Numbered from the stretch's first letter, positions 5,106-28,694 are shown. The stretch is 64,000 nt of DNA from GCF_053078305.1 NZ_CP166879.1; one strand, 5' to 3'. Notes: generated by a model from the letters alone, not told the origin. Program-made: numbers and translations.

Positions 5106-5107
5106 TC

Positions 5108-8020: not shown

Positions 8021-8103
8021 ACACATGCATGATAACAAAGTGGAGGTGGTTTCACCCCCACTTTATAATTATACACACATCACAAAATTCGCAGGTGAGT
8101 TCA

Positions 8104-9535: not shown

Positions 9536-9572
9536 GTTTTCTCCGTAAAAACAGGGAACACATGGCCCGGAC

Positions 9573-9590
9573 AGGGGAACAGGTGTTCCC
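9573..9590. promoter_or_regulatory. GC-rich palindrome GGGGAACAGGTGTTCCCC upstream of 8849..9535
   Basis: perfect 18-bp palindrome about 40 bp upstream of the gene start on the minus strand. Confidence 0.4.
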
Positions 9591-9646
9591 CTTCGGGTTG
9601 AAATGTTGATAAAACGGGCATCACGGACATGATACCCGGAGGTTAA

Positions 9647-10594
9647 TTACTGGGCTGAGACCAGAGGAACCGGTAAAGGTGCGGCTTTCGTCTGTTCTTC
9701 AGCGCACTCCTCCACCAGGTACAGTCGGGGCTGTGGAAGTGTTTCCCTGCCCGGCCATTCGGCCTGCAGATCACTGTCCGTATGCTCTCCGCCATCGTAA
9801 CAGTTGTAACCCTGTATACCGTGTACCGGCTCGCTGTACCAGTGTCGGACCTCGCAGTCAAACACCTTCGAGATCTCACCAACCAGTTCGCCTGAAGGCG
9901 GATACCAGGGCGTGTCGATCAGCAGCACCAGACTGCTCATCTCATCACGCGCATGGCGAACATTATTTCCTGACGGCCACTCCACACCGTATATCCGGCT
10001 GTAAAGGCTGGTCGTTGTGGAAATACCCTGCAGCAGTCCACCTGAACCATTCAGCTCTGTAGCCAGACGGGAGGGTATGACCATCAGCATGTCACAGGGC
10101 TGCGCCTGTTCCGGGTAATCCGACAACCAGCTCCAGCAGGCTTCTGCATCAATGTGTTCACTCAGCCCGGCCAGACCAAACCAGTCAGAATACTGACGGC
10201 TCATCAGCGTGGTGATGATCTCCCTGGCATTATCCGGCAGATTACCCCAGCGAACAGCGCCGATACATGACTGGTGATAAAGACGCTCAATGGTCTTTAT
10301 CGTTTCACCATCCAGAACGGCATTTTTTACCAGCAACCCCAGCCACTGCTCAAACGCCTGGTTAGCCGGAGATGACAACCCCGTTCCGTGACGAACCAGC
10401 GCCGGATATGGCGGATACTGCGTCGTCCGTGTGGGTTTTACCAGCCCTGCACAACCGGCCAGAAACAGCTGTATACTCTGCTGTATGGCATGACGGTAGC
10501 GCGGGGTCTCACGCCCTTCAATCCACTGTGTAAGTACATCAAGACAGACTGATTTACCGGTAATTTCAAAACGGTTTTTGCACCATTCAGACAT
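9647..10594 (-). CDS. hypothetical protein
   Basis: 315-aa ORF; no family recognised. Confidence 0.5.
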   Translation of the reverse strand: MSEWCKNRFEITGKSVCLDVLTQWIEGRETPRYRHAIQQSIQLFLAGCAGLVKPTRTTQYPPYPALVRHGTGLSSPANQAFEQWLGLLVKNAVLDGETIKTIERLYHQSCIGAVRWGNLPDNAREIITTLMSRQYSDWFGLAGLSEHIDAEACWSWLSDYPEQAQPCDMLMVIPSRLATELNGSGGLLQGISTTTSLYSRIYGVEWPSGNNVRHARDEMSSLVLLIDTPWYPPSGELVGEISKVFDCEVRHWYSEPVHGIQGYNCYDGGEHTDSDLQAEWPGRETLPQPRLYLVEECAEEQTKAAPLPVPLVSAQ

Positions 10595-10630
10595 TGTTTA
10601 CGCTCCTCTTTTTTATACAGATGTAAAAAG

Positions 10631-10668
10631 AGGGCATTGTCCCGTGAGGTACAATGCCCTCACGGGAA
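10631..10668. promoter_or_regulatory. palindromic element, family A (CCCGTGAGG-ACAATGCCCTCACGGG)
   Basis: complex inverted repeat about 40-70 bp upstream of start 10594; near-identical copy at 11468-11500. Confidence 0.45.
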
Positions 10669-10677
10669 AACGGGGTA

Positions 10678-10992
10678 TCACGCCCCGTTGTTGCGGATAA
10701 AACCCTGCAGCCAGGCAGTTCGCTCAGGGCCATACCGCCTGTTGACATTCATCAGTTCGTCTGCAGACGGATTGATGAAAAGGTTGTAGTACCAGAGCTC
10801 TTCCTTTAAATCCGCCAGGTTCCCCCTGCCGGTCCTGAGCCACTCCTGTACAACATCCCTGATTTCAGATGTGACATCTCCACGGTAATTTGACGTGATC
10901 GTAACATCTGCCAGTAATTCACTGATATTTCCTGCTATCAGACACGGTTCAGAGATCCCGTTACAGAACCAGACAAGGCATTTACCAGCCAT
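10678..10992 (-). CDS. hypothetical protein
   Basis: 104-aa ORF in a co-directional array; no family recognised. Confidence 0.4.
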   Translation of the reverse strand: MAGKCLVWFCNGISEPCLIAGNISELLADVTITSNYRGDVTSEIRDVVQEWLRTGRGNLADLKEELWYYNLFINPSADELMNVNRRYGPERTAWLQGFIRNNGA

Positions 10993-10995
10993 ACC

Positions 10996-11433
10996 TTACC
11001 TCCTGTATTTGCTGGTATTTATCCCGATCTCGTTTATGGCTACGGATATGTTGCCCGGAAAACGCGCTGTTTCAATCTTCTCCAGCTCGTTTTTCCGGTA
11101 ACGCTCCACGGTCACACTCAACGGGACGTTCCCCTGTCCGTACTCTTTACGAAGGCGATCAATACACTCCTGTACCAGTTCATCGCTGAAATAACGGGAT
11201 TCAAGCACAGACAGCAGCCCGTCTTTATTCTCAAACCCCTCTGTGACAGAGCGTACTTCGGCCTCCGTTGGACCATCCAGCCAGCTCACCCACACATTGT
11301 TGAAAACTTTCGGGAAAGATGGATCGCATTTCCGCACAGAAAATTTCTGTCCCGGAAATGTATACGCCAGCACATCCCTGATACGGGCCACAACAGCATC
11401 GTCAACATCAACCAGTGCGTTATCGTTCATCAC
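10996..11433 (-). CDS. hypothetical protein
   Basis: 145-aa ORF; starts 4 nt after the stop of the downstream gene; preceded by a family-A palindrome. Confidence 0.45.
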   Translation of the reverse strand: MMNDNALVDVDDAVVARIRDVLAYTFPGQKFSVRKCDPSFPKVFNNVWVSWLDGPTEAEVRSVTEGFENKDGLLSVLESRYFSDELVQECIDRLRKEYGQGNVPLSVTVERYRKNELEKIETARFPGNISVAINEIGINTSKYRR

Positions 11434-11467
11434 TCAGTTCCTCTGTAATCCTGAAATAACAGAGAGC

Positions 11468-11500
11468 ACTGCCCCGTGAGGGACAATGCCCTCACGGGAT
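11468..11500. promoter_or_regulatory. palindromic element, family A
   Basis: CCCCGTGAGGG-ACAATG-CCCTCACGGG: 10-bp perfect stem with 6-nt loop, about 40-65 bp upstream of start 11433. Confidence 0.45.
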
Positions 11501-11539
11501 AAATGGCGGTCAGGTTATAACCGCCACCGGTAGTAAAAA

Positions 11540-12517
11540 TTATGCTGCGCACTCCTGCGAAGTTCGCCGCGTCAGTAAATACTCTGATGCTTCACGTGCC
11601 TGCCGGCAGGCGCGAAACAGCGCTTTTTTGTCAGACTTCAGAACCTTAAGCCATCCGTCAATATAACTTTCGTGCTGTACGTCACCGGCAATCCCGAGAT
11701 GTGCACACAGAAAAGCACTGCCCATCTCGGCAATCAGCTCTTCAAACGCATATTCCGGGCTTTTGCGACCGGTAAAGGTACTTATCCCCACCCGCCGCAG
11801 GCGCTTTTCATGACCGGTACTGTGTACCAGCTCATGCAGCAGGGTGGCCTGGTAATCAGCCACCTGGTCAAACTGCGACGACAGTGGCATCACGATACGG
11901 TCAAGATCAGGCCGGTAGAATGCCCTGTCCTGTGGAAGTGACGAGACGCTGACGCCGCTGCCATTCAGTACCTGCAGCACCCGCTCACTGAAGGTATCTG
12001 CCGGCAGTGCATCCGCGCTGCCTTCCGCCTTCACCATCAGATGTTCAGGTAAACCGTCACACTGCCCCACATTAAACAGAGGATTCGATTTCAGTACCGG
12101 TACGATTTCCATGAGAGGCTCCCCCTCACTGTCCGTCAGCCGGTTACCGTGTTCATCCACAGCCTGTTTTTTCCAGTCTTTGTAAATCACCGCCAGCGTG
12201 GCCACCTCCCCTTTACGGACGTGGCCACCCAGTTGTTGCGCCTGACGGTACGTCAGCCAGTCATTGCTGACATACCCGGCTTCATCCGCGGCCAGCCACA
12301 GCAACAGGACGTTCACCCCTGTATAAGGCTTCCCGGTCAGGGCATTTGCCGGCATCATCTCCGGAAGCCCCACGCCATTACGCGCAGAGCGCCAGGGACG
12401 TTTCCAGGGTGGCACACCATTTTCAATGGCCGTAACAACCCTGTCGGTCACAAGCTGATACAGGTCACGTTCCGGAGTTTTAATCGCGGTACGTGAAGTA
12501 TGTTTTTTCGTTTTCAT
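11540..12517 (-). CDS. ardC: ArdC-like antirestriction protein (ssDNA-binding N-domain plus zincin-like metallopeptidase domain)
   Basis: C-terminal HExxH motif LLHELVHSTGHE; overall resemblance to ArdC/DUF1738; ORF 11540..12616 but ATG at 12517 (MKTKKHTSRT) with AGGGGG RBS is the likelier start. Confidence 0.7.
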   Translation of the reverse strand: MKTKKHTSRTAIKTPERDLYQLVTDRVVTAIENGVPPWKRPWRSARNGVGLPEMMPANALTGKPYTGVNVLLLWLAADEAGYVSNDWLTYRQAQQLGGHVRKGEVATLAVIYKDWKKQAVDEHGNRLTDSEGEPLMEIVPVLKSNPLFNVGQCDGLPEHLMVKAEGSADALPADTFSERVLQVLNGSGVSVSSLPQDRAFYRPDLDRIVMPLSSQFDQVADYQATLLHELVHSTGHEKRLRRVGISTFTGRKSPEYAFEELIAEMGSAFLCAHLGIAGDVQHESYIDGWLKVLKSDKKALFRACRQAREASEYLLTRRTSQECAA

Positions 12518-12550
12518 AAGAGCATGCCCCCTGAAAAAGATGCACGCTCC

Positions 12551-12576
12551 CTGTACGGTGAGAGTGCACCGTACAG
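12551..12576. promoter_or_regulatory. perfect inverted repeat CTGTACGGTG-AGAGTG-CACCGTACAG upstream of ardC-like gene
   Basis: 10-bp perfect stem about 35-60 bp upstream of the ATG at 12517. Confidence 0.4.
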
Positions 12577-12609
12577 TTAAATTAATAACGAAAATCAGAC
12601 TGGCCAGAA

Positions 12610-12993
12610 TTACCACAACGCCAGCATCACCAGTGAACGACGCTCAAAATCAAACGTCTTCAGCGTATTGCTGACCCACGCTTTTACGTCATCCACGTCA
12701 TACCAGTAATCACCGGCATAATCTTCCCCCCGTAAACACGAGCCTGTGACATAAGGAAACAGCCTGTGGCAGTTCCCCGGTGTCAGCATACTGAGGTCGC
12801 GCAATAATGCAGCCAGTGAACTGCGGGTTACAGGGAAAGCATGCTGCTCATCTGAAGCACCGGTATGTTCACGAAACCATGTCAGAAGAGGTTTCACCTT
12901 ACGGAAAGCCCCCACCTCCTGATGTTCCTGTGTTCCCACAACGGCACCACTGTGATGGTTATCACGAGCCAGAAAGTAAATATCGAGTCCCAT
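12610..12993 (-). CDS. hypothetical protein
   Basis: ORF 12610..13029; ATG at 12993 (MGLDIYF) has an AGGAGA RBS; palindrome CAGGGATATGTCCCTG at 13029-13044 lies upstream. Confidence 0.4.
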   Translation of the reverse strand: MGLDIYFLARDNHHSGAVVGTQEHQEVGAFRKVKPLLTWFREHTGASDEQHAFPVTRSSLAALLRDLSMLTPGNCHRLFPYVTGSCLRGEDYAGDYWYDVDDVKAWVSNTLKTFDFERRSLVMLALW

Positions 12994-15450: not shown

Positions 15451-15706
15451 CCGTTAATAAAGGGCGCAGTTATAAAGAAACCTTCATCGTCATGACTGAC
15501 GATATCTGCTCTCAAAGGTGGGCAGATTTACCACCACCAGAAACATCCTGGCTGCACATCCCCTTTCAGGTTACGGGGGTGTTGATCACCCGAAGGCGTT
15601 CCTCTCAGATCAACGGAACATTGGTGCCCACCGAAGCGGGATGTGGTCACCCGAAGGCGCTCCTCTCAGACCACTTATGGAGCATTGGTGGTCGCCGAAG
15701 CGACAT
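15451..15706. repeat. direct repeat copy 1 (~255 bp) flanking the recombinase cassette
   Basis: near-identical to 17784..18037 by eye; contains tandem ~63-bp hairpin units. Confidence 0.85.
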
Positions 15707-15770
15707 GTAGCCACCCGAAGGCGCTCCTCTCAGGCCACTTGTGGAGCATTGGTGGTCGCCGGAGCGACAT
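15581..15770. repeat. tandem array of three ~63-bp structured units
   Basis: units begin at about 15581, 15643 and 15707; each opens with a 6-7 bp stem (TTGATC/GATCAA; TGGTC/GACCA) around the conserved loop ACCCGAAGGCG(C/T)TCCTCTCA. Confidence 0.8.
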
Positions 15771-15812
15771 ATAAGCCTGTATATTTTTAAATCACAAAAG
15801 ATGAATGTCAAG

Positions 15813-16136
15813 TTATTCAACATCAATCCAAAGAGGAATATTATGTATTCCCTTAACGGGTTCTCCCAGAGGAAAAACACAGGTCCCTTTAATCAGTATT
15901 TTTCTTCCCGACCATCTGACATCACAGTTAAAATCTCCCACCACATCAAAATAATCCGCAATGGATTCATAGATGTCCCATTCATCATAGATATCCCATT
16001 TATCTGCTGTTCCTTCACATTCAAACTCGGCCTGATATCCGGAATCAACATATCGCGCCAGATAGTGTGACCACAAAGGCGAATTTTTTGTAATCTCTTT
16101 TACAGAGATTATTTTCAGCAAAATAGTACAATCCAT
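15813..16136 (-). CDS. hypothetical protein downstream of recombinase
   Basis: 107-aa ORF, AT-rich, acidic; no family recognised. Confidence 0.35.
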   Translation of the reverse strand: MDCTILLKIISVKEITKNSPLWSHYLARYVDSGYQAEFECEGTADKWDIYDEWDIYESIADYFDVVGDFNCDVRWSGRKILIKGTCVFPLGEPVKGIHNIPLWIDVE

Positions 16137-16168
16137 AATATTTACCCGTACGAAATCGCCATGAGTTA

Positions 16169-17071
16169 TTACTCATAGCCTAACAACTGACAATAAACCT
16201 GTTCAATATATCGTCCTCTGCCATCACCATGACCAAGATCAATTGATGTCAGTGCAAGTGCCTCCTTATAACTGTAACCGTTCATAATATGATATTTCAT
16301 GGCACTTGCAGCGTAACTGTACCGAAAACTGTGTGCAGTCTCATCTCTGCCTTTCAGTTCTCCATAACGACGTAATGTATTAAGATAATAATCCATTGCC
16401 GACTTAAGATTATCTCTGTCTATAAGACGTCCATTATGTTCACTGGCATATTTGAGTGCATAATTAACAGCATCAAGAACGTTATCCCGGTCAACAACCG
16501 TTGTCATTCTTTCCCGTCCCCCTTTCGTACCAAAAATCACTCTTATTTTTTCATCTCCCCGTTGTAACGCTTTTTTCCAGGTTCGTAATGATTTGGCCGA
16601 CTGGATAGCTTCTTCATTTCTCAGACCGAGGTAACGTGACAGTTTAACAACAGCAGCCACCCCTTTATCTTTTGCTTCCACACGCTGAAGAATCTCCCGA
16701 AAACGCTCATCCGTGATTAATTTTTTTGTTCCCTTACGACTGGAGCCGGAAATGCCTAACGCTTTATTGCTGAGACGAGGATGTTCGGGATCAGCCATCT
16801 TATATTTACCTGCCTGACGTAACATAACCCGTATTGCAGACATTTCATTTTCCCTTGTTCGCCCAGAAACATTATTCCGGCTTCTCATATATAGCTCAAT
16901 ATGCCGGACTTTTACCTGCGCGGCAGAACTGATCTGTACATTCATTTTTGCCAGACTTTCAGCAAAGCGGTGCATGATCCTGGTGTAATCACTCAGCTTC
17001 TTGAAGCTGCCTTTGTCTTTTCGAATGTGAGCAACCAGATCCTGTTTCAGTAATTTTTCACGTCTGGACAT
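16169..17071 (-). CDS. tyrosine site-specific recombinase (phage-integrase family, ~300 aa)
   Basis: C-terminal catalytic signature HSFRYSYA ... LGHGDGRGRY (HxxR ... Y) and box-I-like RYLGLRNEE; ORF starts with GTG at 17086, ATG at 17071 has an AGGAG RBS. Confidence 0.85.
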   Translation of the reverse strand: MSRREKLLKQDLVAHIRKDKGSFKKLSDYTRIMHRFAESLAKMNVQISSAAQVKVRHIELYMRSRNNVSGRTRENEMSAIRVMLRQAGKYKMADPEHPRLSNKALGISGSSRKGTKKLITDERFREILQRVEAKDKGVAAVVKLSRYLGLRNEEAIQSAKSLRTWKKALQRGDEKIRVIFGTKGGRERMTTVVDRDNVLDAVNYALKYASEHNGRLIDRDNLKSAMDYYLNTLRRYGELKGRDETAHSFRYSYAASAMKYHIMNGYSYKEALALTSIDLGHGDGRGRYIEQVYCQLLGYE

Positions 17072-17120
17072 CAACTTCTCCTGCACATAATAATTTTTAC
17101 CTTAAACAGCTGTACGTTCG

Positions 17121-17171
17121 GCAGATGAGTTTTTCTGTTGTGCCGTGAACACAACAGAAAAACTCATCTGC
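17121..17171. promoter_or_regulatory. 22-bp perfect inverted repeat upstream of recombinase gene
   Basis: GCAGATGAGTTTTTCTGTTGTG - CCGTGAA - CACAACAGAAAAACTCATCTGC, 50-100 bp upstream of start 17071. Confidence 0.5.
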
Positions 17172-17783
17172 ATTTCTCCCTGACGACACGGTTAAACGTT
17201 GCGATCCTTCGGGTAGTGACTGCCTGTGCGCCAGGGTAGCGCAGATTGTTTAGGTATTGAGGGGTAACAAATCGGTGTTGCACACCGACTGCAGCATTTG
17301 CTGTACCTGTCTCCAGGTCGCCCCCGACACCACCTCTAATAAGTGGTATCGCCGATTCGGCATCTCACTACATAAAACTCCTTAAAAAAACAATTGATTC
17401 TGCAAAAAACCATTTATGGACGTTATTCACAAAATCGTCCGTAAATTTGCAGAAGAGGTTGAAAAAACACTCTCACGCCGGGTCACTTCTTCAAATGTTA
17501 AAAAACATCACGTGAAACGGCAGTTCGTGCGGGTTCGTTAAGCAGACGCGCGTGCGTCACTTTGTCATCGTGACACGCTGACGAAAGTGACGCCGCGCAG
17601 CTTCAGACGCCAGATACACGCGTAAGCGACCAAATTTCAAATGGTCTTATACAGCGCGCACAGTCGCAGGAAGTGCTGGCAAACAAATGAAAAGAATAAA
17701 AGAAGTCAATACCGCCATTACGCAGTAAGAACATTCCGGCATCACCGGATGGATAAGGATCACACAACCACTGCTGTGTATTG

Positions 17784-18037
17784 CCCGTAATAAAGGGCGC
17801 GGTTAAAAGAAACCTTCATCGTCATGACTGACGATATCTGCTCTCAAAGGTGGGCAGATTTACCACCACCAGAAACATCCTGGCTGCACATCCCCTTTCA
17901 GGTTACGGGGGTGTTGATCACCCGAAGGCGTTCCTCTCAGATCAACGGAACATTGGTGCCCACCGAAGCGGGATGTGGTCACCCGAAGGCGCTCCTCTCA
18001 GACCACTTATGGAGCATTGGTGGTCGCCGAAACGACA
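17784..18037. repeat. direct repeat copy 2 (~255 bp) with two tandem ~63-bp units (17913-18037)
   Basis: near-identical to 15451..15706. Confidence 0.85.
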
Positions 18038-18385
18038 GATAATGTATTCTGAGCATATCAGAGCGCATAAAAGGCGTCAATTATCCATGCTCCCTCACGA
18101 AACAGAAGCTGAACTCTTAACACCTGCTATCGGAACTCACTGAATAAACAACTAAAAAGGACATTGTGAAAATTAACATCAACAGTATGTAAAGTGATTT
18201 GTTTTGTCTTAAATGGGTGAATGTAAAAAAATATTCTATACAATCCACACATCCTTGTATCATATATCAAGTAAACATCCACAGAGATAACAGCTTATTT
18301 CAAATAAGCAGATTCTGTTTGATACTTCAGAAAAATAGTATATGCTCCTGATTTACTGATGTTATAAGTTATACAGGATAGTTAA

Positions 18386-19342
18386 ATGTGTGATTTTATA
18401 AAATCATGTTATGCAGCACCAAGAATTAACAAAATGGCTGATTTTTTCTCATCAACAGCATCTGGAGTAAAACATAAACCTTTGAAGCATGTAAAAATTG
18501 ATAACAGGCTTTTCCCATCTCCTGAGTATATAATTTTTTCTGACTATCTTACGAAAAACAGTGGTCCATTTGTTAACCACTACTTTTGCAGTATTCCATA
18601 CAGCAAAGAAGAAGAATGCAGGCTGGGTGTGACTATTATGAAATATGCAAGCCATCGAAATAAGCCATTGAGCTTATGGTGTCTTGGAATGGCAGAAGGA
18701 GCCATGGCCAGAACAATTTCTCAACTATCAAAAGGACAGGTTTTATCATTAACAACCAGCCCAACAAAAGAAAATGAACCTGTATTCTTTAGTCATGGTT
18801 CTCATATTCACTCTTACTTTATTTGCTCCCCATTCTTTCTTGTTCATGAAGAAATAAAAAATAACAACCCTGAACTATTTCCTCATGGTTTTGATATTAT
18901 AATAGAAGATACAACGTTTCAGATGTATTCTCCCGACAGAGAACAACAAATAAAACATGTAAAAAAAACATTAAAATACGATGGTATTTTCATTTTCACA
19001 GAGAAATTTTCCACCTCCACAAAAGAATATCAGATTAGAGAATATCAAAAAGATTTTTCATTTAAACAAAGATATTTTTCACAAGATGAAATAGACGCAA
19101 AAAAAGAAAACGTTCTTAATATCATGAATTTAAATGAAGTAACTCTCGAAAGAATGATTACAGCCATTAAGTCACATTTTAAATATTATTCTGTCTACTG
19201 GAATAGTGGTAATTTCTATTCAATAGCTGCCAGCAATTCGCAAAAAAACATTTCTGACTTTATAATGTTGCTTCCTGAGGCAGCCATACCTATGGAGTAT
19301 GTTTATTTTAAGGTTCCAACCAGAATAACAGGAGTTATATAA
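18386..19342 (+). CDS. hypothetical protein, possibly SAM-dependent methyltransferase-like
   Basis: 318 aa, very AT-rich; weak motif-I-like SLWCLGMAEGAM and motif-II-like FDIIIEDTTF. Confidence 0.4.
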   Translation: MCDFIKSCYAAPRINKMADFFSSTASGVKHKPLKHVKIDNRLFPSPEYIIFSDYLTKNSGPFVNHYFCSIPYSKEEECRLGVTIMKYASHRNKPLSLWCLGMAEGAMARTISQLSKGQVLSLTTSPTKENEPVFFSHGSHIHSYFICSPFFLVHEEIKNNNPELFPHGFDIIIEDTTFQMYSPDREQQIKHVKKTLKYDGIFIFTEKFSTSTKEYQIREYQKDFSFKQRYFSQDEIDAKKENVLNIMNLNEVTLERMITAIKSHFKYYSVYWNSGNFYSIAASNSQKNISDFIMLLPEAAIPMEYVYFKVPTRITGVI

Positions 19343-19346
19343 TCCC

Positions 19347-19922
19347 ATGGACTTCTCAACATTAATAACATTCTCTATTATAACCTTATCACAAACAGTA
19401 TCGATTGGTCCGGGGGTGGCATTAATCATATCTGAAAGTCTGACATATGGTGCAAAAAAAGCAATAACGACAAGTATATATATAAGATTTGGCGAAATTG
19501 TTGTCATGCTAGTCACACTATTTTCTATAGCACTGGCAATCAATTTAGAAAAACATCTTGACACAATAAAAACTTGTGGTGGTGGATATCTGATTTTTCT
19601 TGGTATTACTCGTCTCATCAAGAGAAAAGGATCTAAAGGAAACAAAGCAAATATCCCTTTTTTAATACCGATGCTCAATCCAAAGGCCTTTTTGTTCTTT
19701 GCTGCATTTATGCCATCATTCATAAAAAACAACAGTAACTTTAATACTGACTTTTTGTTACTTTGTATCATTTTTATAATTGTGTCATTACTCACTGACT
19801 TAATATATATATGTATATGTTTAACTATAAGAGGGCGTATAAATTCATCATTTTCAAAATATGTTAATTTTATCAGCTCTTTATTTATACTTTTAACTGG
19901 CGCATATCTGGTTTTTTTATGA
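19347..19922 (+). CDS. LysE/RhtB-family amino-acid or metabolite exporter
   Basis: 191 aa, multi-pass hydrophobic; N-terminal SIGPGVALI resembles the LysE signature; starts 4 nt after the upstream gene. Confidence 0.65.
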   Translation: MDFSTLITFSIITLSQTVSIGPGVALIISESLTYGAKKAITTSIYIRFGEIVVMLVTLFSIALAINLEKHLDTIKTCGGGYLIFLGITRLIKRKGSKGNKANIPFLIPMLNPKAFLFFAAFMPSFIKNNSNFNTDFLLLCIIFIIVSLLTDLIYICICLTIRGRINSSFSKYVNFISSLFILLTGAYLVFL

Positions 19923-20070
19923 TATGCCGTCAGGGTGTGCTTCCTTACATATCACGCCCTCTTCCAGACGTCGCTGGTCGTCGCCCTCTGCGTCCCTTAC
20001 TTTCAGCCCCTCTGAGCATAATCGCCCCTCCAGAGGAGCCCATCACAACGACAATGCCAGCGGGTTAATT

Positions 20071-20643
20071 TTATCTGACCCGGCCTTCAGCCACATCCTT
20101 CACACGTTTAACTAATGGCTCAATAAATTTATCTTTCAGATGCCCCGGTGCCGGAGATGCATACGTTATATATATCCGACTTCCTTTGCCATTTTTTTCA
20201 AGTTCAAGCGTCAGATGATCATCAAACTCGCCACCATCCCAGTCACTGCCCATTTTATAATAACTACCGGGCATGGCATCCCACATATGCCCGTTCTGAC
20301 TTATTGCTGCTGCGGCCCACTTCCCGTTCGCATGTCCGTTATTACGAATCGCATCGACTTCTTCATTTGAATAAAACTTATAGTACCGTTTCAGTCTTCC
20401 CGCAGCTGTATCCACATCAACAGGGACTTCTATGACATGATCACGTTTCTCTCTTTTTGCCCGGGGTGCCTGAGACAGATATTTGAGATCATCATCTGCC
20501 TGGTTTACACCTACGTTCAGTACTTTTGTCACAGCAAATGCACCGTCACTTATCTGCCTGTTCAGCTCTGCAATTTCCTGTGCAGAACAGGCACTCAGCG
20601 CAACACACGAAGCACAAACGAGTAACATTTTTTTAGTCAGCAT
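20071..20643 (-). CDS. putative lipoprotein
   Basis: 190 aa; signal peptide with lipobox VALSAC. Confidence 0.5.
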   Translation of the reverse strand: MLTKKMLLVCASCVALSACSAQEIAELNRQISDGAFAVTKVLNVGVNQADDDLKYLSQAPRAKREKRDHVIEVPVDVDTAAGRLKRYYKFYSNEEVDAIRNNGHANGKWAAAAISQNGHMWDAMPGSYYKMGSDWDGGEFDDHLTLELEKNGKGSRIYITYASPAPGHLKDKFIEPLVKRVKDVAEGRVR

Positions 20644-21601
20644 GTCTTCATCCTCATCAGCAGCTCTTCAGTGGATAACATCCACAGTTACACCTGCATT
20701 TACGCGCAACAAAAACACCAGATGAAGATTTTATTCATTCAGCTCCGCTAAAAATTAATCTTGCTGTGGAATATCGGGAAAACAGGAAGTTACGTTAAAA
20801 GCCGAAGGAAAAACTCACAATCCCTTCTTCAATCAGCCTCTGAAAATCGGCTTTTCAGCATGTCTTCCCCCATTGTTCGTATACCCTGTTCGATGGATTA
20901 TTATTGATCCATATGATCGCTTCACGTAAACACGATTCTGGCTCCACACCATTCTGGACGCGATTGTTACCAAAAAAGACAACCATCACAAGACGTCACA
21001 GACGGTGCGTGCGCTTACTCCTGTATATCTGGCGCAACAGAATCTACCAGTGTAAACTCTCTATGCTTTTGCGCAGAAGCAGTGGGCCTGGGTTCGCTTA
21101 TGTCCTGCATCTACAAGCGAATGACTGACCAGAGACTCCCATATCTGGTCAGTCGCCCATTTTTATTTTCCCTATACACTCAGACTACAATAGCCGTAAC
21201 AAACAGCATACCCCCAGTCATAGTGGCCCCTTTATCTTCTTATGGCTTGTCTGTGGTACTGGAGATAGAGCAACTGTGGGAGTACTGTTATGGCCCCCGG
21301 TAAGAAAAACTCTTGCTTAATGTACAGCAGAACTGTTCCCAGAAAGAAGCCTGTGCATATTTTCATAGAAGGAGATCACCCATAACGGCGTTTTTCACGG
21401 TAATACACGCCAGGTAAAGAATGCTGGATTATCAATCAAAGCTCCGCACAGGAAGCGCTTATGCCGTAGAGCGCCCTCTGGAGAAAAGTGCTACTTCTTG
21501 TCGATTCAGACTAGTTCAGGAAATTATACGAAAATATTACCTGAATGAGCTAAATGTTATTTACCTTCCTTTCTGTTCATTGTAAATTTTTTCTTGCTAA
21601 C

Positions 21602-21620
21602 GCAAATCATTATCATTACG
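21602..21620. promoter_or_regulatory. Fur-box-like sequence upstream of TonB-dependent receptor
   Basis: GCAAATCATTATCATTACG contains AATCATTATC, matching half of the Fur consensus GATAATGATAATCATTATC; about 20 bp upstream of the ATG. Confidence 0.55.
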
Positions 21621-21640
21621 ATTTTAGAAAAGGGAAATTT

Positions 21641-23689
21641 ATGAAGAACAAATATATCATTGCTCCGGGCATTGCCGTGATATGTTCTGCAGTCATATCA
21701 TCAGGTTATGCCAGTTCTGATAAAAAAGAAGATACGCTTGTTGTTACTGCCTCCGGCTTCACTCAGCAACTCAGAAATGCACCGGCCAGTGTTTCAGTCA
21801 TTACTTCAGAGCAACTGCAAAAAAAACCGGTTTCAGACCTGGTCGATGCGGTAAAAGATGTTGAAGGGATTAGTATCACCGGTGGGAATGAAAAACCGGA
21901 TATCAGTATACGTGGGTTAAGTGGCGATTATACATTGATTCTGGTCGATGGACGACGTCAGAGTGGTCGGGAATCCAGACCAAACGGCAGCGGCGGTTTT
22001 GAAGCCGGATTTATCCCTCCTGTGGAAGCAATTGAGCGTATTGAAGTTATACGTGGCCCTATGTCTTCCCTGTATGGTTCCGATGCTATCGGAGGAGTTA
22101 TTAATATCATAACCAAACCTGTTAATAACCAGACATGGGATGGCGTACTTGGGCTTGGGGGAATTATTCAGGAACATGGGAAATTTGGTAACTCAACCAC
22201 GAATGACTTCTACCTGTCAGGCCCATTGGTTAAGGATAAACTTGGTCTTCAGTTATATGGAGGAATGAACTATCGCAAGGAAGATAGTATCTCTCAGGGA
22301 ACACCAGCAAAAGATAATAAGAATATAACGGCAACACTCCAGTTTACTCCGACTGAAAGCCAGAAGTTTGTTTTTGAATACGGAAAAAATAACCAGGAAC
22401 ATACATTAACACCTGGTGATTCTCTTGATGCCTGGACTATGCGGGGAAATCTTAAACAACCAAACAGTAAAAGAGAAACACATAACTCACGTAGTCACTG
22501 GGTAGCAGCATGGAATGCCCAGGGCGAAATACTGCATCCTGAAATTGCTGTTTATCAGGAGAAAGTTATTCGTGAGGTTAAATCTGGTAAAAAAGATAAA
22601 TATAATCATTGGGATCTTAATTACGAGTCAAGAAAACCGGAAATAACCAACACGATCATAGATGCAAAAGTGACGGCATTTCTGCCGGAAAATGTGCTGA
22701 CCATCGGAGGTCAATTTCAGCATGCAGAACTCCGTGATGACTCAGCCACAGGTAAAAAAACGACAGAAACACAGTCTGTTTCAGTTAAACAGAAAGCTGT
22801 TTTTATAGAAAATGAATATGCTGCAACGGATTCTCTCGCCCTGACTGGAGGGCTGCGCCTCGATAACCATGAAATCTATGGCAGTTACTGGAATCCAAGA
22901 TTGTATGCTGTTTATAACCTGACCGATAATCTCACTCTCAAAGGAGGGATCGCAAAAGCATTTCGGGCCCCTTCGATTCGTGAGGTCAGTCCTGGATTTG
23001 GAACACTGACGCAGGGTGGTGCCTCTATTATGTATGGAAACAGGGACCTGAAACCGGAGACCAGTGTAACCGAAGAGATCGGTATTATTTATAATAATGA
23101 CAGTGGTTTTTCAGCAAGCGCGACTCTGTTTAATACAGATTTTAAAAATAAGCTGACCAGTTACGATATAGGCACAAAAGATCCAGTCACTGGGCTAAAC
23201 ACTTTTATTTATGATAATGTGGGTGAGGCAAATATCAGAGGTGTGGAGCTTGCAACTCAGATTCCTGTGTATGATAAATGGCGTGTATCTGCAAACTATA
23301 CATTCACTGACTCCCGTCGAGAAAGCGATGACGAAAGTCTCAATGGCAAGTCGCTGAAAGGGGAACCTCTGGAAAGAACTCCCAGACATGCAGCCAATGC
23401 AAAACTGGAATGGGATTACACTCAGGATATTACATTTTATTCATCTCTGAATTATACAGGAAAACAAATCTGGGCAGCACAAAGAAATGGTGCCAAGGTT
23501 CCCCGTGTTCGTAATGGATTCACTTCTATGGATATTGGTATGAATTACCAGTTCCTGCCAGGCACGCTGATTAATTTTGCCGTACTTAACGTCACAGACA
23601 GAAAGAGCGAAGATATCGATACCATTGATGGTAACTGGCAGGTCGATGAAGGACGTCGTTACTGGGCTAATGTAAGAATATCCTTCTGA
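21641..23689 (+). CDS. ireA: TonB-dependent outer-membrane siderophore receptor (IreA-like)
   Basis: 682 aa from ATG 21641; signal peptide, TonB-box-like DTLVVTA, plug motif IEVIRGPMSSLYGSDAIGGVINIITK, terminal aromatic ...RISF; size and sequence match my recollection of IreA (Iha not excluded). Confidence 0.75.
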   Translation: MKNKYIIAPGIAVICSAVISSGYASSDKKEDTLVVTASGFTQQLRNAPASVSVITSEQLQKKPVSDLVDAVKDVEGISITGGNEKPDISIRGLSGDYTLILVDGRRQSGRESRPNGSGGFEAGFIPPVEAIERIEVIRGPMSSLYGSDAIGGVINIITKPVNNQTWDGVLGLGGIIQEHGKFGNSTTNDFYLSGPLVKDKLGLQLYGGMNYRKEDSISQGTPAKDNKNITATLQFTPTESQKFVFEYGKNNQEHTLTPGDSLDAWTMRGNLKQPNSKRETHNSRSHWVAAWNAQGEILHPEIAVYQEKVIREVKSGKKDKYNHWDLNYESRKPEITNTIIDAKVTAFLPENVLTIGGQFQHAELRDDSATGKKTTETQSVSVKQKAVFIENEYAATDSLALTGGLRLDNHEIYGSYWNPRLYAVYNLTDNLTLKGGIAKAFRAPSIREVSPGFGTLTQGGASIMYGNRDLKPETSVTEEIGIIYNNDSGFSASATLFNTDFKNKLTSYDIGTKDPVTGLNTFIYDNVGEANIRGVELATQIPVYDKWRVSANYTFTDSRRESDDESLNGKSLKGEPLERTPRHAANAKLEWDYTQDITFYSSLNYTGKQIWAAQRNGAKVPRVRNGFTSMDIGMNYQFLPGTLINFAVLNVTDRKSEDIDTIDGNWQVDEGRRYWANVRISF

Positions 23690-24362
23690 GAGAATATAGA
23701 TAACCTGAGGCCGTGCGCCTCAGGTACCAGTATAGTAATCAGTAACGTCAGCTTCCAGGTTGTAATGCTTTTAATTTTGATAAAAATAAACTTAATAAAT
23801 TACATTTGTTAAATATTGATAATTTTAATTTGGTTTTATTACTCCAGTTATACTCACACTCTATCTTTACACAATTCATCACCATTACACCTCCATAGCC
23901 TGTTGATTTAAAAGATTTAATTTCCTGTGAAACAATCAGGCCTGTATGAACCTGATTATACCACAGAATCTTTTAAGTTATTTAAATTTAACTCTCGGGC
24001 TTTTCTGTCAGTAAAATCAGAAAAATTGCAGGATTTCGTTTTTTTTGCTGCGAAGTGAAATGTATCTCATTTTTACTGCCTTCGCCAGTGCGTCAGGCAA
24101 TGGCAGGTAGTGTACCTGCATTCTGCTGTAACGCGTAATGTCGGGTAGTTTACTTAAACTTAATATGTTTTATGTTTGCATTATTATAAATCACTTTATT
24201 GCCTTTTGTCTGCTTTTTAATGGTTCCCGTTTTGTTCACTTCTGGCTTTATAAAAAATGGATGCTGAAGAAATGAAGGTAGTCCACCTTACATAATATTC
24301 ATGCATGATTTTTATGCTATTCCGACTGAGTGGAAGAAAATAAAGGAGAAAAGAGGGTATAT

Positions 24363-27300
24363 ATGAACCTCAGAAAAAAACATATCTGTATAGCCATATC
24401 ACTTGTTCTTAATCCGGCATCCATATCACAGGTCAGTGCTCAGGCAGATACAAATAAGTTAACTGTTGAAGTTGATGAAACCAGCCTTGGCCATGATGTC
24501 TATGGCGATGACTGGAAGAGCATTGAAATAGGTACAACGAAATTTACAGCAAAAGATGAATCAAAGGGAATTAATTTCGACCATAAATCACCGGTGGCTG
24601 AAGGACGTAACTCTATCGCGATTGGTACCAGTGCAGAGGCTGGAGGTGACATTAGCACGAAGGAAGGTTTGTACACAGGCGAGTCTATTGCGATAGGAGC
24701 GAAAACGAAAGCAACTAAAGAACAGTCAATTGCAATAGGTGGCGATACCAAAGCTACCGGATGGGGGGCTATTGTTATTGGTGGGGATGATTTAACTCCT
24801 TTGCATGGTAAGACTTATGGTCGGGAAAAAATAGAGAATGGCTATCTTGCATCGGAAGCGCAGGGGGATGGCAGTATTGCGCTGGGCAGCAGAACTTTTG
24901 CTAAAGGCGAATTGTCAGTATCGCTTGGTTCGGTGAGTTCTGCTGAGGGGATGGCCTCGAATGCAATTGGAGCCACGGCGGAAGCTAAAGGGGATATGGC
25001 GACTGCGGTTGGTTTTAATGCGCTGGCTAATGCCGGTAATGCTCTGGCCGTTGGTAGTCAGTCCTCTGCAAATAAAAACGATGCTCTTGCTGTTGGTTCA
25101 GAGGCAAATGCCGCTCAGAATGAAACGGTTGCCCTGGGGCATGGAGCAACCGTTACTGTCGCAAAGGGGAACGTGTCCATCGGCGCTGACTCCAGGGATA
25201 AGCAGGCACAAAAAGTAACAGAGGCTAAGGTCAGAACTAAAAGAGGCGCGGAAGTCACATATAGTGGCTTTGCCGGAAATAACGCAGCATCAGTAGTATC
25301 TGTTGGTGATGCGGGTAAAGAGCGTCAGATTGTTAACGTGGGGGCGGGTGCGATTTCTGACACAAGTACAGATGCCATTAACGGTAGTCAGTTATATGCG
25401 ATAGCGAAGACACTGAAAGATGACCTTGATGCCATTAATCCGACGTGGACGCTAAAGGATGATAAGGGAGGTTCTGCGACTATTAATGGTGGGAAGGATA
25501 ATAAGAATGGTAACACTTTAACTGTTAAAGGTGATGGAGATATTGCAGTTACTGTTAATGATAAAGGAATGACGATTGACGGAACAACGCTGAAAAATGA
25601 AATAAAAAATGATGCCATCAAAATTAAAGGTGGAGATGGTAAGACGCTGACGAAGAGTCTTGGTGACAATGTCGAAATCACTGGCAAAGGCCCAATAAAA
25701 ACCCAGGTGGCTGGAGATAAACTGGAGATTTCAGCAGAGACAGCTTCGTTGCCTGTAAATGGTGGTAACGGGAAGATTACAGTAAACAATGGTGATGGCG
25801 ATAAACTTGTTACTGCGAAAAACATTGCTGATGCCATAAACCAGTCTGGCTGGAAAATTAAAGCGGATAAAGATACCGGTGGTGTTATCGAGGGAAATGG
25901 TCAGGGAACAGAAACACTGATAAAACCCGGTGATATGGTTACGCTGAAAGCCGGTAAAAATCTCAGCGTGAAACAAAGTGGTGGTGATTTTACATTCTCT
26001 GTTATTGATACTCCGTCATTCAGCAGTGTTCAGCTGAATGGAAAAGGAAATAACGGAAGTGTAACGCTCTCATCCGAAGGTAATAAGCTGACATTGTCAG
26101 GCGGTAATGGTGCCGGACAAAATGGTGTTGTTATCAGTGGTGTGGCAAGTGGACTGGAAGGTAAGGAACTTTCGACGTTAACGAATACTGATAAAGAGAT
26201 GAAAAATGCCGCCAGTGTTGCAGACCTGAAAACGGCAATTGATGGTGTGTCCTCCAGTATGCAGGGTGCAGGTTTCGCACTGAAAGACTCTGATGATAAG
26301 GAAGTGAAACAGTCTCTTGGGCAGGCGATTAAAGTATCCGGGGACAGCAATATCACCACCACAGCCATCACCAATGGGGATAAGGGGTTAAAAATATCCC
26401 TGAATAATGACCTGAGCGTTGGGAGCAATAATACTCCCGGCAGCATCAAAGTTAACGGGGCTGATGGTAAGGAGGCTGTGAGTCTGAATGGTCAGGATGG
26501 CACGATTAAACTGACATCCTCGCCTGCTGCGGGTGGAAAGTCTGCGTCAGCAACCATTGCTGTTAATGCAGGCAAAGGTGGATTAACAGATGCTGCCGGT
26601 ACCACGAAGACACGTCTGACTTATACCCCGGATGGAAAATCACCGGCAGAAGAGCTGGCGACCATGAATGACGGTCTTTCTTTTGAGGGTGATGACGGAA
26701 AGGTTATTCATAAAAAACTGAATGAAAAACTGACCATCAAAGGTGGTGCAGAGAAGAATGCTGAAGTGACTGACGGCAATATCCGGGTTGATAATGATAA
26801 TGGCGGGCTTCTGGTGAGGATGACCAGAAACCTCCGTGATTTGGCCAGCGCGGTTTTTGGTACAGGTGGGCAGATAACAACAGTTAATGATAAAGGCATC
26901 ACAATCACAACACCTGCTGCGGGCGGTGGTCAGGGGAATACGGTTTCCCTTACCGGCTCCGGCCTGAATAACGGTGGAAATCAGATAACCAGTGTGGCCA
27001 GTGGTCTGAACGGCACTGCGCTTGCTGACGCCGGTGGAGATGTTCTGAATAATGCGGCCAATATCGGTGACCTGAAAAATGCTCTCCGTGACAGCAGTGC
27101 GGCACTGGTGAATACCGGCTTTGGTCTGCAGGCGGATGACGGAAGCAAGGTGAACACGTCTCTCGGGAAGCATATCACGGTTGGTGGTGACGGGCAGAAT
27201 ATCAGCACGACTGTTCAGAACGGGAGCCTGACGGTCAGACTCGCTGATAACATTCGCCTGGGAGATGACGGCAGTGTTTCTGTCGGCGGAACCCGGATGG

Positions 27301-28694
27301 ATAAAAACGGACTGACCATCAAGGATGGCCCGTCAGTGACTGTGAACGGTATTGATGCGGCTGGCCGGGTTATTTCCGGCGTGAAAGACGGGGTGAATGA
27401 CCAGGACGCCGTTAACGTTTCACAACTGAACCGTGAAATCAGTCAGGCAACGGCAGCAACGACCTGGGCACTGAAGACTGAATCCGGTGATGAGGCTGTT
27501 GCTGTTTCCTCCCAGACGGTTGAAGTCCGTCACGGACAGAATACCCGGGTTTCAGCCATCAGTAAGGATGATAAGGGAAATTACAGCTATGAGATTGATG
27601 TGACGGGGATTCCGGTGGAGTACACCGACAGCCAGGGGAACCCGCTTGTCAATATTGGTGGTCGTTTTTACACACAGACCGAAGATGCTGCGACCGGGAA
27701 ACTGACAATGACGCCGGCTGAGCCGGCCCGTGTCAGAATAAGCAGTGAGCAGCCTCTTGTTCTGACAAATGTGGCGGCCGGAAATGTGTCACCGGTATCC
27801 ACGGATGCGGTTAACGGGAGCCAGCTGGCATCTGCAGCCAGAATTGCTGGCGGTGATAATGTTGTCTGGAAAGACGGAAAAGCAGCGCTGGCTCCTGACA
27901 CCTTCAGTGAGCTGACAACTGCAGGTGGCGGTAAGACAACGGTGAATGGTGGTGTACATAAAACACCGGATAATGTGGCTGATGCAGTGAATATGCTGAA
28001 CCGTGAAGGCACGAAGTATTTTAAAGCTGCCTCTTCCGGTCAGGCAGCAAAAGCGGAAGGGCGTGACAGTATTGCTGTCGGACAGGGGGCCGTTTCCCGG
28101 GGACAAAACAGCATTGCCATGGGTAATGGTGCTGAAGTCACGCGTCAGGCTGCTGCCGGCTCTGTTGCAGTTGGCAGCCATGCCCGTGCTGGCCGCGCGA
28201 ATACCGGGACTTATGCCCTGAACGGTCAGGCTGTTGCGGGACGTACCGGAAGTGATACTGCGGTGGTTTCTTTTGGTCAGCCGGGACAGGAGCGTCAGCT
28301 GCAGTCAGTGGCACCGGGTGTGTTGTCTGCGAATTCAACGGATGCCGTCAATGGCAGTCAGTTGCATGCAACTAACCGTCAGGTTGCCGGAAATACACAG
28401 GCGATAAACACCCTCGGGAATAAATTCAGTCAGCTGAGCTACCGGGTGGAAGAGCTTAACCGGGATATCCGTGGTGTTGGTGCATCGGCTGCGGCCATGA
28501 GCGGGATACCTCAGGCCTATCTGCCGGGTAAAAGTCTGATGGGGCTGGGTGTCGGTGGATATGGTGGTGAAAGCGCCATTGCAATAGGGGTGTCCCGAAT
28601 CTCCGATAACGGTAAGATGATAATGAAACTGAATGCAGGTCAGAACACCCGGGGTAATTTCTCCGTCGGTGCCGGTGTGGGCTGGCAGTGGTAA
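24363..28694 (+). CDS. trimeric autotransporter adhesin (YadA-like anchor)
   Basis: 1443 aa from ATG 24363 (ORF opens at 24330); signal peptide; recurrent neck motifs DAVNGSQL / AINGSQLYA; YadA-type C-terminal anchor ending GVGWQW. Confidence 0.85.
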   Translation: MNLRKKHICIAISLVLNPASISQVSAQADTNKLTVEVDETSLGHDVYGDDWKSIEIGTTKFTAKDESKGINFDHKSPVAEGRNSIAIGTSAEAGGDISTKEGLYTGESIAIGAKTKATKEQSIAIGGDTKATGWGAIVIGGDDLTPLHGKTYGREKIENGYLASEAQGDGSIALGSRTFAKGELSVSLGSVSSAEGMASNAIGATAEAKGDMATAVGFNALANAGNALAVGSQSSANKNDALAVGSEANAAQNETVALGHGATVTVAKGNVSIGADSRDKQAQKVTEAKVRTKRGAEVTYSGFAGNNAASVVSVGDAGKERQIVNVGAGAISDTSTDAINGSQLYAIAKTLKDDLDAINPTWTLKDDKGGSATINGGKDNKNGNTLTVKGDGDIAVTVNDKGMTIDGTTLKNEIKNDAIKIKGGDGKTLTKSLGDNVEITGKGPIKTQVAGDKLEISAETASLPVNGGNGKITVNNGDGDKLVTAKNIADAINQSGWKIKADKDTGGVIEGNGQGTETLIKPGDMVTLKAGKNLSVKQSGGDFTFSVIDTPSFSSVQLNGKGNNGSVTLSSEGNKLTLSGGNGAGQNGVVISGVASGLEGKELSTLTNTDKEMKNAASVADLKTAIDGVSSSMQGAGFALKDSDDKEVKQSLGQAIKVSGDSNITTTAITNGDKGLKISLNNDLSVGSNNTPGSIKVNGADGKEAVSLNGQDGTIKLTSSPAAGGKSASATIAVNAGKGGLTDAAGTTKTRLTYTPDGKSPAEELATMNDGLSFEGDDGKVIHKKLNEKLTIKGGAEKNAEVTDGNIRVDNDNGGLLVRMTRNLRDLASAVFGTGGQITTVNDKGITITTPAAGGGQGNTVSLTGSGLNNGGNQITSVASGLNGTALADAGGDVLNNAANIGDLKNALRDSSAALVNTGFGLQADDGSKVNTSLGKHITVGGDGQNISTTVQNGSLTVRLADNIRLGDDGSVSVGGTRMDKNGLTIKDGPSVTVNGIDAAGRVISGVKDGVNDQDAVNVSQLNREISQATAATTWALKTESGDEAVAVSSQTVEVRHGQNTRVSAISKDDKGNYSYEIDVTGIPVEYTDSQGNPLVNIGGRFYTQTEDAATGKLTMTPAEPARVRISSEQPLVLTNVAAGNVSPVSTDAVNGSQLASAARIAGGDNVVWKDGKAALAPDTFSELTTAGGGKTTVNGGVHKTPDNVADAVNMLNREGTKYFKAASSGQAAKAEGRDSIAVGQGAVSRGQNSIAMGNGAEVTRQAAAGSVAVGSHARAGRANTGTYALNGQAVAGRTGSDTAVVSFGQPGQERQLQSVAPGVLSANSTDAVNGSQLHATNRQVAGNTQAINTLGNKFSQLSYRVEELNRDIRGVGASAAAMSGIPQAYLPGKSLMGLGVGGYGGESAIAIGVSRISDNGKMIMKLNAGQNTRGNFSVGAGVGWQW

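Follow-up and report, generated by a model that had tools for sequence, protein, structure and literature searches.

We describe two adjacent genes, gene 1 ('MT*') and gene 2 (LysE), at positions 18386-19922 of a 64,000-nucleotide stretch of DNA from GCF_053078305.1 (NZ_CP166879.1); this whole stretch is called the window below. The pair is probably (at an estimated probability of about 0.6) a minimal mobile cassette, one enzyme with its dedicated exporter, for the production and export of an amino-acid-like metabolite. The analysis shows the fold of the gene 1 protein, the exporter family of gene 2, their tight linkage, co-inheritance and mobility, and repeated links of the enzyme family to exporters, ligases, acetyltransferases and regulators. 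We infer co-transcription, use of S-adenosylmethionine (SAM), biosynthesis rather than detoxification, an amino-acid-like product and an extracellular role.

Organization of the gene pair

Both open reading frames (ORFs) lie exactly where the initial annotation had placed them, 4 nt apart. The features of the pair are listed below.

18386-19342, plus strand: gene 1 ('MT*'), 318 aa, ATG start, ORF call
19347-19922, plus strand: gene 2 (LysE), 191 aa, ATG start, ORF call
18145-19925: AT-rich islet of 1.8 kb with both genes, GC 0.312
18319-18346, plus strand: sigma-70-like promoter candidate TTGATA-16-TATGCT, 40 nt upstream of gene 1, weak consensus match
18375-18378, plus strand: AGGA ribosome-binding site of gene 1, 7 nt before the ATG, read from the sequence
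19330-19334, plus strand: AGGAG ribosome-binding site of gene 2, within the last gene 1 codons and 12 nt before the ATG, read from the sequence
18961-18968, plus strand: A8 run, invariant in the E. coli copies compared
19099-19105, plus strand: A7 run, site of the sole natural frameshift seen

The TAA stop codon of gene 1 (19340-19342) is followed by TCCC and then by the ATG of gene 2 at 19347. The annotated start of gene 1 is backed by homologue alignment. The islet begins ~100 bp past the right copy of a 232-nt repeat and ends 3 bp past the LysE stop codon. The GC content of the pair is 0.318, compared with 0.448 in the left flank, 0.464 in the right flank and 0.458 in the whole window, in agreement with the low GC noted initially. 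Moreover, the GC of the pair is below that of the host in every genome examined, which identifies the pair as acquired cargo. The two genes are presumably co-transcribed from one mRNA.

The gene 1 protein has a class I methyltransferase fold

An AlphaFold2 model of the gene 1 protein, built on 33 homologues (pLDDT 94, pTM 0.93), has the seven-stranded alpha/beta Rossmann-like fold of the class I methyltransferase superfamily. CmoA is its nearest solved structure and the sole relative detectable by sequence; the family profile aligns with CmoA across the C-terminal half, and motifs are common to both. Judged from the model, gene 1 encodes a class I SAM-methyltransferase fold of the CmoA clade and belongs to an unnamed family. 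The 318-aa protein had first been tentatively called methyltransferase-like, and the structure model and the family profile bear this out at the level of the fold. The HMM and structure searches that had been proposed for it thus returned an enzyme fold, with no curated model passing.

Among the Pfam and NCBIfam models, none scored above its cutoff against gene 1. The weak matches, to Methyltransf_31 and CmoA, had E values between 1e-2 and 2e-4. Methyltransf_31 reached 16.2 bits (cutoff 27), Spermine_synth 14.2 bits (22.9), and the CmoA models TIGR00740 and PRK15451 21.2 bits (193.3) and 19 bits (285), respectively. The protein also carries a conserved, family-specific N-terminal extension of about 60-90 residues.

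The reference enzyme CmoA is a carboxy-SAM (Cx-SAM) synthase (TIGR00740; PDB 4gek, 4iwn and 1im8). It is 16% identical to gene 1, lacks the ~60-residue conserved extra segment at the N terminus, and has a motif-I Asp and a beta2-end Asp that are both replaced in gene 1. CmoA acts with CmoB on tRNA and without an exporter, whereas gene 1 is paired with one. The column aligned with CmoA Arg199, a residue with a role in carboxylate or prephenate binding, varies in the family (K/R/E/Q/S/N/T/A); the invariant K239 adjoins it and aligns with CmoA K198. Neither cmoB nor any other carboxymethyltransferase gene was found near the enzyme gene in the 88 loci examined. We therefore rejected gene 1 as a CmoA equivalog, on the grounds of scores far under the cutoffs, the variable Arg199 column, the N-terminal extension and the missing carboxymethyltransferase partner. 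Gene 1 was likewise rejected as an azetidine-2-carboxylic acid (AZE) synthase, because the motifs 17-FY-18, 133-PFNxxGN-139 and 172-RxxYYxxC-179 of such enzymes (PMC11794875) are absent from the family alignment.

Across relatives at 36-70% identity, 35 alignment columns are invariant. Family-invariant residues of gene 1 include H65, S69-I70-P71, E75, R79, G101, R109, N130, D170, E174-D175-T-T-F-Q-M180, R185, K207, Y215, R218-E219, K222, K227, K239, W272 and N276-F277. These columns, with EDTTFQM and many Arg and Lys residues among them, indicate a conserved active site and probably an anionic or zwitterionic substrate, as judged from the alignment. The glycine-rich motif I after beta1 is present as G101-x-x-x-G105 (LGMAEG) and reads GxGxG (LGAGAG) in a clade linked to LuxR genes.

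Gene 2 encodes a predicted LysE-type exporter

Gene 2 matches PF01810 at full length and above the gathering score (56.2 bits against 25.6, E 4e-15; residues 16-189; profile positions 3-190 of 193), which upholds its initial assignment to the LysE family. It also matches TIGR00949, the homoserine/threonine efflux subfamily (E 4e-16), and its closest family matches fall in the homoserine / homoserine-lactone efflux group. Its scores are far under the equivalog cutoffs of RhtB (40.8 against 209), RhtC (22.4 against 288), LeuE (31.5 against 165) and EamB (13.3 against 193). By these matches, gene 2 is a predicted LysE-superfamily exporter of the RhtB-type subfamily and is no equivalog of the named E. 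coli exporters.

The enzyme family recurs beside exporters, ligases and regulators

An exhaustive family search returned 522 cluster representatives at 50% identity, 388 of them at E<=1e-10. Full-length relatives at 36-70% identity occur in Enterobacterales (E. coli, Klebsiella, Citrobacter, Pectobacterium), in many Rhizobiaceae and Phyllobacteriaceae, in Burkholderia and Chlorobium, and in the Firmicutes Niallia, Blautia and Streptococcus equinus. Source databases name these homologues "hypothetical" or, generically, "class I SAM-dependent methyltransferase", and one JGI homologue is labelled tRNA (cmo5U34)-methyltransferase.

We called ORFs in 88 loci and clustered the neighbours. The two E. 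coli alleles, Pectobacterium, Niallia, Streptococcus equinus, Ciceribacter and Phyllobacterium myrsinacearum have the enzyme followed on the same strand by LysE, separated by about 1-25 nt; the Pectobacterium pair is chromosomal, between an ABC-transporter operon and gcvP, and the Niallia pair adjoins a prophage. In Mesorhizobium and Rhizobium, beside trb genes, a U476-MFS-AraC group is divergent from the enzyme (or enzyme-LysR); among the 88 loci, these partners number 59 for AraC, 54 for MFS, 50 for U476 and 26 for LysR. LuxR-enzyme-U476, with or without a GNAT acetyltransferase, is found in Sinorhizobium, Agrobacterium, Rhizobium and Phyllobacterium, and ATP-grasp-enzyme in Chlorobium and one alphaproteobacterial metagenome-assembled genome.

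Most rhizobial homologues adjoin trb/tra conjugation genes, and a SMa0974-family conjugal transfer regulator lies 3' of the enzyme gene in 9 loci. A LuxR gene of the acylhomoserine lactone (AHL) type stands beside the enzyme gene in 11 loci, mostly immediately upstream and on conjugative replicons; the position immediately upstream of the enzyme gene, taken by the luxR-type gene, is the usual luxI site. All 11 of these LuxR-type neighbours keep the six canonical AHL-contact residues, with a TraR sequence as reference. In pAt15955 of A. tumefaciens (L096, 6295-10017), one operon holds the luxI homologue traI(At_2), the enzyme, U476, which resembles an aminoacyl-tRNA synthetase (aaRS), and a GNAT, and the enzyme gene overlaps the 3' end of traI(At_2) by 8 nt. 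When traI(At_2) was expressed alone, no AHL was detected with a biosensor (Barton et al., PMC7856919). Genes in this operon may be needed for the product of traI(At_2), or may modify it.

Fusion proteins extend this picture. The enzyme is fused to a class II lysyl-tRNA synthetase (LysRS) in P0088, with an ABC exporter and a NUDIX gene upstream; to an ANL adenylating enzyme in P0157, in a cluster with an isopropylmalate synthase (IPMS)-like enzyme, an acyl-CoA dehydrogenase and an MFS pump; and to an EamA transporter in P0146. P0166 carries a nicotianamine-synthase-like domain. A cluster at 2590-12101 of L099 (GCA_042669545.1) encodes an IPMS-like enzyme, a protein of 454 aa, a cupin that resembles ectoine synthase, an ANL-enzyme fusion, an acyl-CoA dehydrogenase and an MFS transporter. 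By analogy, it recalls the logic of belactosin/cystargolide-type pathways and could be the most tractable homologue for the chemistry of the family.

Taken together, the enzyme family has been joined independently to five exporter kinds (besides LysE, MFS in 54 of the 88 loci, MFS in L099, ABC beside P0088 and the EamA fusion P0146) and to four ATP-dependent ligase kinds that are unrelated to each other (aaRS-like U476, LysRS, ANL and ATP-grasp). The simplest reading is that the enzyme supplies an amino-acid-like building block, by making it or by preparing it, and that this block is secreted either as such or once it has been ligated to a further acid or amino acid. The initial suggestion of production or detoxification coupled to metabolite export is supported.

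The pair is mobile and inherited as a unit

The region of the window is at least 99% identical in only 7 of 5426 complete E. coli genomes; all seven copies are chromosomal, and several are in Shiga-toxin strains. In annotated relatives the pair lies within an integrating conjugative element (ICE) of the TIGR0375x / PFL_4703 type, and one relative also has the subtilase cytotoxin genes subAB.

A second allele, with an enzyme 70% and a LysE 51% identical, is carried on mobilizable MOBQ plasmids of about 5.7 kb. It occurs in 29 of the 5426 genomes, always plasmid-borne, and also on Salmonella and Klebsiella plasmids. The other genes of these plasmids encode Rep, MobA, a TraD-like protein and one 238-aa protein, beside which the enzyme and LysE are the only identifiable non-backbone cargo. 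Colicin and microcin plasmids follow a similar logic to such small plasmids with only an enzyme and a pump as identifiable accessory genes, and this likeness favours a secreted competition factor.

In a neighbour-joining tree, the LysE-linked enzymes are spread over several separate clades. The LysE partners are 51, 38 and 28% identical where the enzymes are 70, 55 and about 44% identical; the two diverge in step, and the pair is therefore inherited as a unit. Together with the separate clades, this parallel divergence indicates that the pairing is old and co-inherited rather than a chance adjacency.

A sister branch ~30% identical to the core family is phage-borne; it sits inside proteins of 1,400-5,600 residues with almost no other recognisable domains, matches phrog_4752 and has 18 related loci on IMG/VR viral contigs. 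The core family itself is absent from the 2.9 million IMG/VR viral contigs, and we rejected a phage origin for it, since only this sister branch is phage-borne. Phage CmoA homologues supply Cx-SAM for DNA hypermodification (PMC12783734). A supply of this kind may account for the phage branch but leaves the exporter-linked core family unexplained.

Sequence variation in gene 1

The A8 run in gene 1 had been proposed as a potential slippage site. The run exists; no variation was found in it among the E. coli copies compared, and we rejected it as a phase-variation site. About 0.3 such runs are expected by chance per 1.5 kb at this A content (a rough estimate), and the run is therefore unremarkable; it is one of six homopolymer runs of at least 7 nt in the AT-rich 2 kb. 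The frameshift was found instead at the A7 run: between the window and L002, an annotated E. coli ICE copy, A7 changes to A8 at 19099-19105, frameshifting gene 1. The same comparison shows a 3-nt in-frame deletion at 18606-18608, a T-run change at 19912 and an identical A8 run. Gene 1 is intact in JNEC-KY171 and in the H6 copy, which RefSeq names "class I SAM-dependent methyltransferase".

Genes around the pair

The features surrounding the pair in the window are listed below.

3069-8020: complete type III restriction-modification system; Mod of 678 aa with N6_N4_Mtase and an EcoP15I C-terminal domain, Res of 970 aa with ResIII and an endonuclease domain
8029-8802: 257-aa ORF after the type III system
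8849-12616, minus strand: N6-DNA-methylase fragment, DUF1281 protein and ArdC (ArdcN + zincin MPTase-PolyVal)
15474-18037: integrase cassette of 2.3 kb, bounded by 232-nt perfect direct repeats (15474-15705 and 17806-18037)
15813-16136: 107-aa ORF within the integrase cassette
16169-17086, minus strand: integrase (PF12835 + PF12834)
20071-20643, minus strand: predicted lipoprotein, 190 aa, no family match
21554-23689: IreA TonB-dependent siderophore receptor, downstream of the pair
24330-28694: trimeric autotransporter (YadA-like) adhesin, 1454 aa, downstream of the pair

The block at 8849-12616 is an anti-restriction block of the leading-region kind, a few kb upstream of the pair on the ICE. 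Hypothetical genes are also among the left neighbours. Each 232-nt repeat of the integrase cassette ends in 64-nt tandem sub-units. A perfect 22-nt inverted repeat with a 7-nt spacer (17121-17171) lies ~35 nt upstream of the integrase start codon and could be an operator or a recombination site. It had been asked whether the pair travels with this recombinase cassette, and it does not: L002, which is otherwise collinear, has the pair and lacks the integrase cassette, and elsewhere in E. coli H39 and H40 have the integrase cassette (89% identity) and lack the pair. The plasmid allele is also without an integrase. We therefore rejected a recombinase linkage of the pair; the integrase cassette looks like an independently mobile or duplicative unit.

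Both annotated E. coli ICE copies examined, L001 and L002, conserve the 190-aa lipoprotein gene directly after the pair. We rejected it as part of the unit because it matches no family, differs in GC, and accompanies neither the plasmid pair nor the pairs outside E. coli. In STEC2018-553 (L001), the IreA/adhesin virulence-type block is gone and conjugation genes are there instead. The weak Spermine_synth match and the nicotianamine-synthase fusion had raised the idea of a nicotianamine-synthase-like metallophore linked to IreA. This idea was not supported: IreA is not beside the pair in H1 (L001), the plasmid allele is without the receptor, and no opine dehydrogenase is nearby.

Discussion

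Under the cassette reading, the cytoplasmic gene 1 enzyme would use a common cellular metabolite to make a small amino-acid-like molecule; the starting compound would be SAM itself or else an amino or carboxylic acid, which the enzyme would modify with SAM. Gene 2, translated from the same mRNA, would export this product as a LysE/RhtB-type secondary exporter, which would both deliver the compound outside and protect the producer. The exported product would act extracellularly, most likely as an antimetabolite or competition factor and possibly as a signal.

Several known systems resemble parts of this model. McC-type (microcin C) clusters combine an MFS exporter with GNAT immunity. A CmoA homologue is reported to act in the cluster of a Trojan-horse antibiotic (reference 24 of PMC12783734). 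The MccS-type and phage homologues of CmoA, which supply Cx-SAM for a Trojan-horse peptide-nucleotide antibiotic and for phage DNA hypermodification, respectively, are like gene 1 CmoA-clade enzymes in mobile or competitive roles, with ATP-dependent ligases (PMC12783734, its reference 24); they are close CmoA homologues, whereas the gene 1 family forms a lineage of its own, and none of its loci examined has a CmoX- or MccB-like partner. The carboxyl O-methyltransferases BelI and CysG of belactosin and cystargolide (PDB 9fce, 9fcl) are 12-15% identical to gene 1, with no sequence-level match, and are without its N-terminal extension. AzeJ and VioH, which have a class I methyltransferase fold with a GxxxG loop instead of GxGxG, make a toxic non-proteinogenic amino acid from SAM alone (PMC11794875) and offer a mechanistic model for a single enzyme and a pump sufficing. 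LysE-family exporters are typical of Pseudomonas antimetabolite clusters, and GvgJ and GvgK of the 4-formylaminooxyvinylglycine (FVG) cluster are RhtB-type LysE pumps dedicated to its non-proteinogenic amino-acid product (10.1101/080572); such clusters hold many biosynthetic genes, whereas here a single enzyme stands with a pump. LuxI uses SAM, as gene 1 presumably does, and LuxR adjoins the enzyme in the 11 loci described above. LuxI has a GNAT-like fold (PF00765), unlike gene 1; a LuxI homologue accompanies the enzyme in one locus, and no LuxR gene stands beside the E. coli pair.

A number of observations weigh against the cassette reading. The family is without any characterised member or known product, and a literature search by accession and topic found no publication on the family, the pair, SMa0974 or the cargo of the small plasmids. 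In the core family, the motif-I Asp is replaced by C/S/T and the beta2-end Asp by T/C; CmoA and the phage sister branch keep both acidic residues, which normally contact the SAM amino group and ribose. Because both are replaced, SAM use is suggested by the fold, and the active site is atypical. The E. coli pair has no adjoining ligase, acetyltransferase or dedicated regulator, and the rhizobial contexts therefore may not transfer to it. The enzyme-plus-pump layout equally fits a detoxification module. Promoter-like matches in the region are as many as expected from shuffling, which leaves the promoter candidate weak, and no intrinsic terminator was found after gene 2. Finally, gene 1 is frameshifted in one of the seven chromosomal E. 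coli copies, and three plasmids of ~5 kb related to the 5.7-kb plasmid (H86-H88; NZ_JBMIQC020000005.1, NZ_CP100506.1 and NZ_CP172223.1) keep LysE and lack at least the 5' half of the enzyme gene. On these plasmids the cassette is in decay, or else the pump has a use by itself; with the frameshifted copy, they indicate that selection on the enzyme is not absolute.

The strongest alternative, which we nevertheless consider unlikely, is detoxification or resistance, in which the enzyme would methylate an incoming toxin such as an amino-acid analogue or antimetabolite, or modify it in another way, LysE would expel the product, and the plasmid or ICE would confer resistance. The linkage of the family to four ligase kinds, to the IPMS-like enzyme and acyl-CoA dehydrogenase of L099 and to a LuxI homologue points to synthesis instead, as do the AHL-type LuxR proteins among its regulators, which classically switch on secreted products; moreover, no resistance-family model matches either protein. 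A little less likely again is a signal synthase, whose signal would be released by LysE and read by the neighbouring AraC, LysR or LuxR to control conjugative transfer, the E. coli versions being receptor-less emitters. This explanation overlaps the cassette reading and differs only in the role of the product. It draws on the trb/tra genes beside most rhizobial homologues, the SMa0974-family regulator in 9 loci, the 11 adjoining LuxR genes with all six ligand-binding residues kept, the overlap with a luxI homologue that gives no detectable AHL alone (PMC7856919), and the precedent of the methyltransferase PhcB, which makes the Ralstonia quorum signal. However, quorum-sensing regulators are also common beside antibiotic clusters, where their role is purely one of control; no receptor gene accompanies the pairs of E. 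coli, Pectobacterium or the Firmicutes, and signal synthesis does not usually involve ligases, GNATs and pumps of its own. The quorum context is thus compatible both with a quorum-controlled antibiotic-type cluster and with an enzyme and ligase making a homoserine lactone (HSL)-type ligand. In a related and doubtful proposal, which we hold slightly less likely still, the enzyme is a new kind of SAM-cleaving synthase rather than a methyltransferase and frees the amino-acid part of SAM as homoserine lactone or a related cyclic amino acid. Such a synthase would have a CmoA-type fold and a re-modelled SAM site without either acidic contact, and the RhtB-like pump would export its product. The ligases of the rhizobial, Chlorobium and fusion versions (aaRS-like U476, LysRS, ANL and ATP-grasp) would N-acylate or aminoacylate this head group, and the resulting LuxI-independent acyl- or aminoacyl-homoserine-lactone-type products, read by the adjoining canonical AHL-type LuxR receptors, would control conjugative elements; the E. 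coli plasmids and ICE would emit the bare head group.

We regard as improbable an anti-restriction role, in which the enzyme would consume SAM after entry and cripple SAM-dependent restriction or BREX while the pump removes a toxic amino-acid by-product such as homoserine lactone. The ICE region with ArdC, DUF1281 and a DNA methylase, the sister branch inside large proteins on phage contigs, the homoserine / homoserine-lactone group as best exporter matches, and the existence of phage CmoA homologues, for which SAM depletion has been raised as a possibility (PMC12783734), speak for it. It leaves the ligase, GNAT, regulator and MFS contexts unexplained, and it sits poorly with the absence of the core family from viral contigs, with a Pectobacterium pair that is chromosomal and between housekeeping operons, and with a phage branch that differs exactly at the SAM-contacting residues. 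Neither protein matches a PADLOC model at E<=0.01, which counts against this role and led us to reject a known anti-phage defence system as well. Very improbable, finally, is a redundant tRNA-modification paralogue (a CmoA-type Cx-SAM synthase) or a pair of decaying, functionless hitch-hikers. CmoA as nearest structure and sole sequence-detectable relative, the single JGI name, the frameshifted copy and the truncated plasmid copies would fit. However, gene 1 scores 21 bits against the 193-bit cutoff of TIGR00740, the Arg199 position is not conserved, there is no cmoB-like partner, and an exporter as obligate partner would be pointless in a tRNA pathway. Decay is opposed by the 35 invariant columns at 36-70% identity and the 522 representative clusters, which together indicate purifying selection.

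The chemistry of the enzyme is not derivable from sequence, a caution in the initial annotation that still holds. CmoA is the one clade member known for ylide chemistry on SAM; with CmoA as the nearest relative and two SAM contacts lost, the reaction may therefore extend SAM chemistry. If the cassette reading is true, a widespread (522 clusters), mobile-element-borne and never-studied family would rank among the smallest biosynthetic units known, with one enzyme and one pump. The pair lies on an ICE of Shiga-toxin strains beside subtilase cytotoxin, IreA and an adhesin, and on small mobilizable E. coli plasmids it is the sole identifiable non-backbone cargo. Its product could therefore help gut E. 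coli to compete or colonise, as a factor that has so far gone unrecognised. Where rhizobial and agrobacterial homologues adjoin canonical AHL receptors and conjugation genes, the enzyme could account for "silent" loci, among them traI(At_2) of pAt15955.

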